From assembly GCA_963827565.1 (NCBI GenBank), contig CAWHBG010000001.1, positions 448,682 to 512,681 of the forward strand: a DNA stretch of 64,000 nucleotides, written 5' to 3'. Positions 21,914 through 51,013 of this stretch are shown piece by piece. This stretch comes from Candidatus Aminicenantes bacterium (GTDB lineage Bacteria; Acidobacteriota; Aminicenantia; UBA2199). The position numbers were made by a program, and so were the translations under genes. Position 1 is the stretch's first letter, and each line of letters opens with the position of its first letter. The notes beneath the pieces are model-generated. The model worked only from the letters and a program-made list of their open reading frames with translations, had not been told where the DNA came from and did no database searches.

Positions 21914-22945
21914 ATGAATACACTAATTAATTTACTATTTTCAGACATTTCTGTGGCGGCAGACAACAACGGGGGAGGGATATCATTTACCCTTATACTT
22001 GTTCTAATCATACTAGTGCTTGTGGCATTTATACTTATAAGGGATAAAAAGATCAGGGATAAGGTGAAAGGCTTCTTCACTGTCATTGGAAGAAAAATAA
22101 AGAATGCAAGGATAAAATCAAAAATAGAGAAAGAGGAAAAAGAGGTTGCTGAGCTCCTTTCAAAGCTTGGCGAGAAGGGGTTCGGGGTTGGGATCTATCC
22201 TGATAATACCGAAGAATTGATCGAGGGGATAAAAAAAGAGAAAGGGATCATTGAGAAATTTGCAAAGGCATTATCTGATAATGAGAAAAAGATCGAAAAA
22301 CTGAAATCGGAGTATGAGATATTTGAGTCATTAAAAAAATCGGAGATAGAAAAAGAGGAGAAGGTGAAGGAACCGGTCGAGAAAAAATATAAAGATGTGA
22401 TCAGGCTGGTTTCGGATCTGAAAAAAGAATCCGAGGACAATGAAAAAAAGATCACGAAGATCGGTAAGGGGATAGAAAAAGCGGAAGCTGAACTAGACCG
22501 TCTATCAAAAGATGAGCTCCTTGATCCTGAAGAGAGGTCAGGGAGGAGAGAGAGGGAGGAGAATACTCTTAAAGATCTTAGGAAAGAATTATCCGGGCGG
22601 ACAATGAGGGAAACAGCAATACCGGGAGAGCTCTCTTCTCTCGAGAAAGAAGAAACTGACCTGAAACTGAAACTTGAAATTTTTAATAAGAATCTGGAAA
22701 AACTGGAAAGCGAGCTGAAAAATACTGAAAAAAAACATGATGAAAAAATAAGTGAACTCGTTAAAGAGAAAGGGCATTTTGCCGGTGAGAAAACAAAGAG
22801 CAGCAATACGCTCAAAGATTTATTTGAAAAGCTTGGAATTATCTTTGATAAAGAGAGGCCAGAAAATAATGACCTTTCGGTCATCTATATCGATATAGAC
22901 CGCGCCCGTGAACGGATAAAAAACCTACAGTCTCAAATTACCTGA
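21914..22945 (+). CDS. N-terminally membrane-anchored coiled-coil protein
   Basis: 343 aa. One TM helix (ISFTLILVLIILVLVAFILI) is followed by ~290 aa of E/K/L-rich heptad-like sequence. It starts 5 nt after lgt. Confidence 0.5.
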   Translation: MNTLINLLFSDISVAADNNGGGISFTLILVLIILVLVAFILIRDKKIRDKVKGFFTVIGRKIKNARIKSKIEKEEKEVAELLSKLGEKGFGVGIYPDNTEELIEGIKKEKGIIEKFAKALSDNEKKIEKLKSEYEIFESLKKSEIEKEEKVKEPVEKKYKDVIRLVSDLKKESEDNEKKITKIGKGIEKAEAELDRLSKDELLDPEERSGRREREENTLKDLRKELSGRTMRETAIPGELSSLEKEETDLKLKLEIFNKNLEKLESELKNTEKKHDEKISELVKEKGHFAGEKTKSSNTLKDLFEKLGIIFDKERPENNDLSVIYIDIDRARERIKNLQSQIT

Positions 22946-22959
22946 TTCTTTTACCATTT

Positions 22960-23330
22960 CAGGTATGGTTCCTACAAGATATACAGTCTTACTCTCGCCA
23001 TCATCCACTTCGCTTCCCGCTACGGATGTTCTCATCCGCTTAACGCTGCAGTCCTCGGGGGGATCGATCTTCGGCGAGTCCCCCCCTCCGGTGCCCGCGA
23101 GAGCAGATGGATGGCTGCGCAATGTAACTCCTTTCAGAACAAATATCATTCATATTGTTCAATACTCTTTGGGGCGCTTCCGTGTTTTGCTTTTGCGGGA
23201 CTGGAAGCCCGAGTCTCGTCAAAATCGAACGGAGGGCGGACCTCCAGAAAAATACCAGCAGGATTTTTCGGTAGCAAAGAGCAATCACGGATAAAGCCTG
23301 TGCAAACAGAATAAATGAATGATATTTTTT
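22960..23330. ncRNA. candidate structured RNA / GC-rich non-coding element of unknown class
   Basis: No protein-like ORF appears in any frame. There is a local GC spike: I count 42/60 G+C in 23041-23100, against ~19-22/60 in the kinase genes. Hairpins include CGGATG-TTCT-CATCCG (23023-23038), GGGGGGATCG..CGAGTCCCCCC (23057-23087), GCAG..CTGC (23103-23118), GCTTCC..GGAAGC (23176-23207) and GGAGG-GCGGA-CCTCC (23231-23245). CTCTCGC (22992-22998) is complementary to GCGAGAG (23097-23103). The strand is undetermined. Confidence 0.3.
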
Positions 23331-23351
23331 TATGCTTCTTCATTATTTTTT

Positions 23352-23401
23352 TTGACATGGGGAGGATTTTATACTATATTATAAGCGAACAAAAGGCGAA
23401 C
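23352..23401 (+). promoter_or_regulatory. lexA promoter with direct-repeat LexA-type operator (GAAC-N7-GAAC)
   Basis: TTGACA (23352-23357), a 17-nt spacer, TATATT (23375-23380), 4 nt, then GCGAACAAAAGGCGAAC (23385-23401), and ATG at 23404. The layout matches 3288-3337. Confidence 0.7.
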
Positions 23402-23403
23402 TG

Positions 23404-23976
23404 ATGATCACAAAAAAACAAAAAATTTTTCTGGAAAAACTGAGATCCAAGGTTACCAGCGACGGATATTTCCCTTCGGTCAGGGAGATATGTGAGATCA
23501 CCGGACTCTCCTCCCCCGCAACCGTCCACTCCTACCTTACCCGCCTGGTGGAAAACGGTTATCTCCGCAGGGACGGCAGGTCGTGGATCATGATACCTGA
23601 GAAAGGTCTGATTCCACTCGTCGGAATAGTTCCTGCCGGATCCCCGTTGGAGGTATTTGAATCTCTCGGGGAAGAAGTTGAGCTTCCGGAATGGATGGTC
23701 GATAAGGGGGGAGATAAGGTTGCTCTGAGGGTTCAGGGTGAAAGTATGAGGGATGCTTATATAAGGGAAGGGGATATAGTGATAATAAAGAAGACACCCG
23801 ATGCAGAATCGGGTGATATGGTCGTTGCCCTTATGGAGGATTCCACAATTACCCTTAAAAGGCTGAAAAAGAACAACGGGTCTGTATGGCTGATCCCAGA
23901 GAATCCGGAATTTGAACCTATCCATGACCCCTTCAAACTTGTAGGGAAAGTGATCGGTGTCCTGAGGAGATATTAA
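23404..23976 (+). CDS. lexA: LexA repressor
   Basis: 190 aa. It has an N-terminal winged HTH (SVREICEITGLSSPATVHSYLTRLVENGYL), an Ala-Gly cleavage site (VPAGSP), and the S24 Ser (GESMRDA) and Lys (VIIKK). Confidence 0.9.
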   Translation: MITKKQKIFLEKLRSKVTSDGYFPSVREICEITGLSSPATVHSYLTRLVENGYLRRDGRSWIMIPEKGLIPLVGIVPAGSPLEVFESLGEEVELPEWMVDKGGDKVALRVQGESMRDAYIREGDIVIIKKTPDAESGDMVVALMEDSTITLKRLKKNNGSVWLIPENPEFEPIHDPFKLVGKVIGVLRRY

Positions 23977-23978
23977 GT

Positions 23979-25169
23979 GTGAGCGCCCCTTTTGTTCTCC
24001 ATATAGATATTGATGCATTCTTTGCCGCTGCGGAAGTGATGATGCGTCCGGGGCTTAAAGGGAAACCGGTTATAATCGGGGGAATGCCCGATGAGCGGGG
24101 TGTTGTCAGCACAGCTTCCTATGAAGCGAGGAAGTTCGGTGTACATTCCGGAATGGCGCTCAGGAATGCAGGCCGTAAATGTCCTGAAGGGATATTTCTA
24201 AGAGGCAGATTTCATATATATGAGAGGATATCCCGTGAGTTCTTCAAGTGTCTTTCCCGATTTTCTCCCGTAGTGGAACCGGTTTCTGTGGATGAAGCAT
24301 ACATTGACCTCAGCGGTATAAAATATTCCGGGTCTTCTGTTTACGACCTTGCAGCCGCGATAAAAGAATCTGCCGAAAAACATATAGGATTGAAAGTATC
24401 TGCGGGGCTGGGATATACAAAACTGGGGGCAAAACTTGCAACAGAGGCAGCAAAGCCCGGGGGAATATTTTTCATGGATGATGAGAAAGAATTTATATCA
24501 GGACTTTCACTTGAAAAGATACCCGGTATCGGGCCTCACACCCTGGTCATTCTTCACGGAATGGGAATTAAGAGGGTCAGCGAGTTAAAGGAGAAGAATT
24601 TCTCTTTATGGAAAAGGGTTATAGGGCATTATTTCTATTCACCCTCCGGTGAGTACAGGAGGAGAAAAGAACCGAAAACAAGGAGTTTCAGCAGAGAAAC
24701 AACTTTTTTGAATGATATAAGGGACAGGAATATGATACTGTCACACCTTGCATACCTCCTGGACAGGCTTTCGGTATATCTGGTAGAAAAAGGCCTCTAC
24801 GCCGGGAGAGTGGAGGTAAAGGTGAGATTCAGTGACTTTTCCACATTTACAGCCAGAAATGCCCTCGAATTCCCGACATTTTCCTACCGGGATATGTGGA
24901 AGAGTTCCGTTCCTCTTCTGGATAAGTTATTGAAGAAAAAAAAACTGCCTCTCAGACTGATAGGTATTAAAGTGGAGGATATTGCAAAGACCAGGTCTCT
25001 GCTTCCGTTCGTTTCAGTGGATGGCGAAAAGTTGAGCAGAACCATTGCCGGGATCAAGAAGAAGCACGGGTTCTCTTCAATTTTCACAGCGAGAGAATTT
25101 CTTCTGGAAAGGGTATATCCCGTGGAGAAAGAGGGAGTTGTTCTCAAGACCGCTTCTCTCACAAAATAA
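23979..25169 (+). CDS. dinB: DNA polymerase IV (Y-family)
   Basis: 396 aa with a GTG start 2 nt after the lexA stop. Motifs: HIDIDAFFAAAE, SVDEAYIDL and KIPGIGP (HhH). It is co-oriented with lexA in an operon-like arrangement. Confidence 0.9.
   Translation: MSAPFVLHIDIDAFFAAAEVMMRPGLKGKPVIIGGMPDERGVVSTASYEARKFGVHSGMALRNAGRKCPEGIFLRGRFHIYERISREFFKCLSRFSPVVEPVSVDEAYIDLSGIKYSGSSVYDLAAAIKESAEKHIGLKVSAGLGYTKLGAKLATEAAKPGGIFFMDDEKEFISGLSLEKIPGIGPHTLVILHGMGIKRVSELKEKNFSLWKRVIGHYFYSPSGEYRRRKEPKTRSFSRETTFLNDIRDRNMILSHLAYLLDRLSVYLVEKGLYAGRVEVKVRFSDFSTFTARNALEFPTFSYRDMWKSSVPLLDKLLKKKKLPLRLIGIKVEDIAKTRSLLPFVSVDGEKLSRTIAGIKKKHGFSSIFTAREFLLERVYPVEKEGVVLKTASLTK

Positions 25170-50939: not shown

Positions 50940-51013
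<74 letters not shown>

Follow-up and report, generated by a model that had tools for sequence, protein, structure and literature searches.

Repeat families of the REP/REPIN-RAYT and GTAG/CGTC/TIR kinds have been described in bacteria by Di Nocera et al. (2013; PMC3733652). Another described repeat, bcr1, belongs to the group A interspersed repeats of the Bacillus cereus group; it is about 150-155 bp long and has paired ends and two independent stem-loops in a shape called 'cruciform-like' (PMC3184786). Compensatory changes keep the structure of bcr1, the repeat is transcribed, and 5-bp direct repeats are found at its flanks (Delihas 2011, PMC3184786). In this study, we analyzed a 64,000-nucleotide stretch of Candidatus Aminicenantes DNA (the window) and found that a GC-rich segment upstream of lexA consists of two diverged units, placed head to head, that belong to a single dispersed, lineage-specific, gene-less repeat family. 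The segment is probably a doublet of selfish, non-autonomous structured mobile repeats that are moved in trans, and not an SOS-linked RNA gene. The kind of repeat is best read as the REPIN, bcr1 or MITE type.

The segment at 22960-23330 lies in a 458-bp intergenic region (22946-23403). On one side is a plus-strand gene for a coiled-coil/membrane protein of 343 aa (21914-22945; an ORF with no Pfam match), and on the other is lexA (23404-23976, plus strand; Pfam Peptidase_S24 and LexA_DNA_bind), which forms an operon (23404-25169) with a Pfam-confirmed dinB gene located 3' of it. A promoter scan placed the lexA promoter at TTGACA (23352-23357) and TATATT (23375-23380) on the plus strand, separated by 17 nt. 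The operator at 23387-23401 (plus strand) is a GAAC-N7-GAAC direct repeat that ends 2 nt before the lexA ATG. Promoter and operator are intact, and they lie outside the element, as does the coiled-coil gene. The preliminary description, made from the letters of the window, had presented the segment as a GC-rich, hairpin-dense and ORF-less element in an AT-rich context. Its count of 42/60 G+C at 23041-23100 was exact, and every motif it named was present where it had been placed. The GC content of 22960-23330 was 49.3%, whereas the window averaged 38.5%; no more than 1.2% of 371-bp stretches were equally GC-rich. The term ORF-less did not hold literally, since ORFs of 67-109 aa overlap the segment. 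The non-coding character did hold, as these ORFs had no match in a Pfam search, and when the repeat copies were compared, the open frame differed between copies and the indels were not multiples of three. On both strands, the 458-bp region folded better than shuffled sequences did (z -2.8), and none of 100 shuffles equalled it.

The 458-bp spacer was then used as a BLAST query against its own genome and 40 relatives. The matches fell in two blocks, 22992-23120 (module A, 64% GC) and 23173-23300 (module B, 52% GC), with a spacer of 29% GC between them. A covariance model built from B-type copies only (model R1, from alignment A1 below) was run on the window, and it detected unit B at 23166-23306 on the plus strand (140 bits, E 4e-38) and unit A at 22982-23128 on the minus strand (30 bits, E 4.5e-6). 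Unit A reached 79.6 bits with a broader model, R2, and an E value of 1.7e-14 with nhmmer. Because a model built from B copies thus recovered unit A in the opposite orientation, the two units belong to one family and are arranged head to head. The core of unit A is at 22992-23120 and that of unit B (GGCG...AAGCC) at 23173-23298. An AT-rich spacer of about 37 nt (23129-23165) separates the units, whose 5' ends point towards each other. Such minus-plus pairs were found at about 10 independent loci in the own genome, G001, G002, G003 and metagenome contigs. The spacer measured 28-37 nt in most of these pairs, and one G001 doublet had 80 nt. The spacer in the window also holds the left copy, AAATATCATTCATATTGTTC at 23141-23160, of a second inverted repeat, the right copy of which is GAATAAATGAATGATATTT at 23309-23327. 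This inverted pair brackets unit B as a sub-element of about 187 bp. The same bracket was found around B at C1:44145-44330, C3:150k, G004:C8 and G003:C64, and its terminus occurred 16-18 times in the own genome.

Units of the family are about 130-140 nt long with a core of about 125 nt. Their ends are the closing stem of the fold, which makes them imperfect terminal inverted repeats (5'-GGCG...AAGCC-3'; GGCTCTCGCCATCATC / GATGGATGGCTGCGCC) of 16-22 bp, the 22-bp form being that of the G043 version. The terminal bases of unit A in the window are degenerate, with TAC.. for GGC.. and ..GCA for ..GCC. About 24 A-type copies were aligned; they were typically 128 bp long (128-132) and had sharp boundaries. 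Insertions of 41-80 nt were observed at the P1/P2 junction or inside hairpin P3 of units that still scored as members (L033, G003:C64, at about 110-150; L019, G001:C13, at 66-287), and extra sequence is apparently tolerated at both places.

Next, the structure of the units was examined in alignments. The RNAalifold consensus of a MAFFT alignment of 21 B-type copies (A1), which was unbiased by structure, contained three helices. P1 is a long stem that closes the unit by pairing its 5' end (GGCG..) with its 3' end (..AAGCC), P2 is a hairpin with the apex CUCGCCAAUAUCGA, and P3 is a second hairpin. In A1, 16/38 pairs were compensated and 96.7% of the cells were paired. The covariation score was 0.285 compared to 0.03-0.08 when the partners were slid by 1-3 columns, and it was reached by 0/500 shuffles. 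In an alignment of 59 distinct family members (A2), 92% of the cells were paired, 34/38 pairs were compensated and the score was 0.52 against 0.06-0.09, although A2 leans towards the structure because it was fitted to the model. Conservation and covariation in relatives were therefore clearly present. G-U and U-G pairs (106) far outnumbered A-C and C-A pairs (27), so the modelled strand folds as a single strand and in a strand-specific manner. This indicates that the folding strand in the window is the plus strand for unit B and the minus strand for unit A. Single-sequence folding gave the same three-way junction for each unit, with -52.1 kcal/mol for B on the plus strand (z -3.1) and -58.7 kcal/mol for A on the minus strand (z -3.0); on the plus strand, unit A folded more weakly (-48.9 kcal/mol, z -1.5). 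These results show that the stems are maintained by compensatory changes and that wobble pairs are tolerated on one strand only.

The unpaired bases of the junction and loops were also conserved (GCGG, CUCGCCAAUAUCGA, CAGC and GCGGUAG), as were GGCG and AAGCC. The P3 loop had the form AUGAGAACAU in most subfamilies, and the junction GCGGUAG varied to GGGAG or GUAAAG in some of them. Across subfamilies, the internal core was conserved and the termini differed. The GC excess was located in the paired stems. Among the five stem-loops of the preliminary description, four were supported by covariation among copies. The CGGATG/CATCCG hairpin is P3 of unit A, the G6/C6 hairpin is P2 of the same unit (G6/C7 in our model), GCAG/CTGC belongs to the unit A closing stem, and GGAGG/CCTCC forms part of P2 of unit B. 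The GCTTCC/GGAAGC stem found no support because GCTTCC pairs with the 3' end of unit B instead. The long-range complementarities proposed there, CTCTCGC with GCGAGAG and CGCTTCCCGC with GCGGGA..GAAGC, are specific to the present copy or join the two units, and were not retained. A structured RNA had been suggested from these helices. What stands of this suggestion is a conserved, covarying, one-strand fold; the single RNA of 370 nt is replaced by two units of about 130-140 nt on opposite strands, and the single-copy gene by a dispersed repeat with insertion polymorphism. The impression that the segment matches no known RNA family was borne out by Rfam 15. The whole window gave only a tRNA at 50940 at the gathering threshold, positions 22800-23500 gave only chance-level matches at E<=10, and among 16 diverse copies searched at E<=10 no family recurred on the element.

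Because loop and junction bases are conserved, a functional RNA is a serious rival to the mobile-repeat reading. The family would then be a multiplied set of functional small RNAs or cis-acting RNA elements, of which the lexA copy is one gene, and a host protein would bind the three-way junction, or the junction would serve as a stabiliser or terminator. The very strong covariation in all three helices agrees with this proposal, the conserved loop bases and the tolerance of G-U over A-C pairs fit a functional RNA equally well, and bcr1 is a transcribed repeat of similar shape (PMC3184786). However, no promoter or terminator of their own was found within or beside the units, and the unit ends coincide exactly with the closing stem. 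The orientation of the units relative to neighbouring genes was random, without bias, and one partner of each doublet is antisense. Given this random orientation, co-transcription does not readily explain why the fold of one fixed strand would be selected. The distribution of the copies, described below, also bears on this rival, and on balance we consider it unlikely, though deserving of attention.

The copies in the own genome and in relatives were therefore surveyed. A profile search with nhmmer found 12 family members in the own genome, all of them intergenic with ordinary genes as neighbours. Among these, both modules, A and B, are present in full at C3:149998-150354 (79% identical); further B copies lie at C1:44145-44330 (89% identical) and C2:1092695, and further A copies at C2:1060527 and C2:1098399. 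Sister species carried up to 25 or more members. Within the taxonomic family, 11/72 genomes in 4 genera carried the repeat; G006, a member of the own genus, had no copy, and among the 401 phylum genomes sampled no carrier was found outside the own genus. In G043, which belongs to another genus, at least 42 copies of a 203-bp version were found, about 97% identical, with sharp ends and a 22-bp imperfect terminal inverted repeat. Copies identical to those of G043 were present in G057, from yet another genus, and the three sister species of G043 had none, a pattern that looks like a burst with horizontal spread. These patchy bursts, with near-identical copies in one genome and none in sister species, and the copy-free genome of the own genus speak against a family of RNA genes. 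In a metagenome scan, the pattern was matched 105 times; of the 80 matches examined and 2 viral ones, only contigs from three samples were true members by the covariance model, and neither viral match was. At the G043 locus L116 (G043:C70:7214-8154), one 203-bp copy had its terminal repeats swapped relative to the core, which is consistent with recombination of the inverted ends having flipped the core in situ.

The preliminary description had found the position directly upstream of the SOS promoter intriguing. Comparison with sister species indicates that it is incidental. The spacer upstream of lexA is empty in G005 and G001, which keep the promoter and operator with an element-free spacer of about 50 bp. 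It holds a remnant with the unit B 3' end in G003, an unrelated GGGGACGGTTCC palindrome in G004, and a B unit of another subtype within a different composite in G002. The promoter/operator block was kept in all sister species, with or without the element, and the adjacency of the coiled-coil gene to lexA was kept in G001-G005. Since the orthologous spacer is empty in two sister species, the element has no obligatory tie to the SOS promoter, and the doublet probably has no required role in SOS control; at most, it might insulate lexA from read-through. At another site, C3:664k, the spacer measured 41-44 bp in G005 and G006 and 370 bp in the own genome. Such orthologous sites, empty in sister species, also count against the functional RNA.

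Three sites of the own genome (lexA, C3:150k and C2:1092k) were also filled in G002, by other subtypes and in one case in the other orientation, a point that weighs against the mobile-repeat reading. The shared-site copies of G000 and G002 were more conserved than the flanking genes (86% vs 77% at lexA), which favors the RNA rival. Sites filled in both genomes may reflect several landings in one and the same spacer or, alternatively, turnover at the site. They could also be old retained copies that hint at a benefit to the host and not at repeated insertion.

We next considered how the units might be moved. No consistent target-site duplication was found in 10 G043-type and 24 A-type copies, scanned for duplication lengths of 2-9 at boundary offsets of ±8 (G043-type) and ±6 (A-type). 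Junctions of seven own-genome and three G043 sites were taken into filled-versus-empty comparisons. The flanks were replaced as well in 3/3 cases, and the spacers elsewhere were too diverged or replaced. No clean filled/empty junction was thus obtained, so the absence of a duplication refers to inspection of the flanks. At two recent G043 insertion sites, L115 and L120, comparison with G023/G044 showed the element in place of about 58 and 200 bp of sister sequence, which hints at insertion coupled to deletion and not at simple addition. No transposase was found within 2.5 kb of the own-genome copies. Neither the own-genome neighbours nor the G043-type ends revealed, in these incomplete assemblies, a parent insertion sequence that shares the unit ends. 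All 47 matches to the G043-type end (47/47) appear to belong to short copies, and the 2.2-kb interval between two convergent G002 copies contained ordinary genes.

These results also bear on the proposal that the units are ordinary MITEs, that is, internally deleted insertion sequences moved by a DDE transposase through their terminal inverted repeats, with the fold as a by-product of the inverted repeats. The imperfect terminal inverted repeats support this proposal, and the units are small, non-coding, multi-copy and insertion-polymorphic, as it predicts. Yet none of the 34 copies had a target-site duplication at any offset or length scanned, and a longer element sharing their ends was not found. 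A conserved core with variable termini is the reverse of the MITE pattern. In addition, covariation in P2 and P3 and the strand-specific wobble asymmetry are not predicted by recognition of double-stranded ends. We therefore regard an ordinary MITE as improbable. A fragment of a higher-GC foreign gene, which the preliminary description had named as an alternative, or a chance GC-rich stretch has virtually no chance of being correct, although the GC content above the genome mean and the overlapping ORFs of 67-109 aa might point to it: there is no Pfam match, the open frame is not kept among copies, the GC excess lies in paired stems, many intergenic copies exist, and copy number and covariation refute it.

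Candidate enzymes were searched for in the carrier genomes. The reverse transcriptase domain PF00078 was absent from every bearer of the repeat, the genomes covered being all 8 of the genus and G043, G057, G023 and G013. The IS110-type recombinase PF01548 was absent from most bearers, with no match in G000, G001, G003, G004, G005, G007 and G043. A retro-mobile (SINE-like) RNA element was rejected on the first result and an IS110 bridge/seek RNA on the second. Y1_Tnp was found in 68/72 family genomes, with 1-17 matches per genome. Every bearer of the repeat has it; it also occurs in element-free genomes, and the co-occurrence is therefore uninformative. For most Y1_Tnp matches, the open frame measured about 290-340 aa, roughly double the length of an IS200 transposase. 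The own genome has seven matches, of which 5 were located by BLAST and coordinates; none of these 5 lay within about 10 kb of a unit, and no match was obtained when 12 Y1 loci from the family as a whole were scanned with the covariance model. A different repeat, GGGGTCAGG.., lies on both sides of one Y1_Tnp gene (C3:350197-350520). No replication-strand bias was observed in the own genome by local GC skew, with 5 units leading and 7 lagging in this small sample. A DUF559 nuclease was rejected as a partner: its brackets in G000, G001, G002, G004 and G005 are CCCCCTTAAGAAGGGGG-type repeats of a different family, and the covariance model did not match them. A BoxC/triplex-motif repeat linked to DUF559 was likewise rejected, as the covariance model gave no match at DUF559 loci.

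The mobile-repeat reading can be put as follows. A trans-encoded enzyme would spread the units, singly or as a doublet, and the fold would be kept because this enzyme needs it. The folding strand is fixed whatever the direction of transcription, no reverse transcriptase was found and there is no target duplication; together, these favor selection on propagation as folded single-stranded DNA. What the enzyme recognizes would most probably be a single DNA strand in its folded form, by analogy with the REP/REPIN-RAYT and IS200/IS605 systems, and an HUH-type (tyrosine) nuclease is the most plausible candidate partner. The doublet would have landed between the coiled-coil gene and the lexA promoter, in a spacer that appears to have been colonized repeatedly by different repeats in the genus. 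Against this reading, the examined Y1_Tnp loci are not adjacent to the element, the co-occurrence with Y1_Tnp says nothing either way, and the units lack the replication-strand bias of IS200/IS605-type elements.

The comparison with described systems gave a mixed picture. Like REP/REPIN repeats, the Aminicenantes units are extragenic, gene-less, multi-copy and palindromic, have no target duplication, and often form inverted doublets with a fixed short spacer. Several repeat families stand in one genome alongside many Y1-type nuclease genes, with BIME-like mosaics. However, the units are about 4 times longer (128-140 nt vs 20-40 bp), and they form a three-way junction where REP units form a single hairpin. 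They lack a GTAG or CGTC head; GCGGUAG at the junction is the only GTAG-like string, and it varies among subfamilies. The two units of a doublet are of diverged subfamilies, unlike the near-identical arms of a REPIN, and no Y1 gene flanked by Aminicenantes units was found. By its published description, bcr1 shares the closing stem with two stem-loops and the compensatory changes, and it is likewise lineage-specific, with a genomic distribution that differs between close relatives. It differs in its 5-bp flanking direct repeats, for which the Aminicenantes copies have no counterpart, and it comes from an unrelated phylum. The classical MITEs (Correia/nemis, ERIC, RUP, BOX) are similar in being small and intergenic, with terminal inverted repeats and long predicted hairpins, and in being nested with other repeats; the Aminicenantes units differ from them in that no target duplication or parent insertion sequence is recognizable and in that the structured core is kept while the termini vary.

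Terminal inverted repeats are missing from palindrome-associated elements derived from IS200/IS605, which insert on the 3' side of a fixed tetranucleotide and are biased with respect to the replication strand. They resemble the Aminicenantes units in that neither has a target duplication, and a strand-specific fold of single-stranded DNA would explain the wobble asymmetry. They differ in that the Aminicenantes units have terminal inverted repeats and show no replication-strand bias.

We would place the element, as a new family, in the established class of small, structured repeats that are interspersed in bacterial genomes. The combination of a branched core shared across genera, variable termini, diverged head-to-head units and no duplication is notable, and a literature search found no paper that links Aminicenantes with MITEs, such elements or the motif. 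A more far-reaching idea, which we hold to be doubtful, is that the three-way-junction core is an active nucleic acid of a new class and not a passive transposon end. It might be a 'giant REP' read as branched single-stranded DNA by one of the many Y1/HUH nucleases of about 300 aa in this lineage, or a structured RNA that aids its own spread or a host function. If true, this would explain why the core and loop bases are kept across genera while the termini vary.

The mobile-repeat reading removes a false lead, since it leaves no SOS-associated structured RNA at lexA. The family is absent from Rfam 15 and its covariation is unusually clean; unrecognized, it would resurface as a 'novel ncRNA' in scans of Aminicenantes. 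Its branched core, variable termini and lack of a duplication make it a test case for the spread of REP- or MITE-like repeats without an obvious transposase. The genome contains at least 4 coexisting repeat systems, namely the lexA-upstream family, GGGGAC-type repeats (Y1-linked), a AAATATCATT-ended module and DUF559-linked G/C foldbacks, which allows them to be compared.

The second of these families consists of GGGGAC(A/G)G.. palindromes, a pattern that the own genome matches 148 times. A Y1 tyrosine-nuclease gene of about 294 aa is bracketed by a 52-bp inverted pair with GGGGTCAGGTC at C3:349662-349712 and 350559-350609. Three-way-junction units were often found beside or inside GGGGAC-type palindromes (L019, L021, L023, L035 and L053), and a palindrome of this type also occurs in the lexA spacer of G004 (L009:1480-1580). 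A third module of about 250-280 bp has the ends AAATATCATTTATTTAGT.. / ..ACGAACTAATAAATGATATTT, the same ends that bracket unit B in the window. It was located at C2:1060.1-1060.5k, C2:1098.5-1098.8k and C2:1092.4-1092.7k and at L026 and L028-L030 of G002, and it often adjoins A or B units, giving BIME-like mosaics. Two DUF559 genes are bracketed by direct CCCCCTTAAGAAGGGGG-type G/C foldbacks that are unrelated to the lexA-upstream element. These foldbacks lie at 967-1314 and 1858-1936 in L278 (the own-genome locus C5:38194-38505) and at 1425-1500 and 1970-2045 in L280, and one DUF559 locus carries a tandem foldback array with a 64-bp period.
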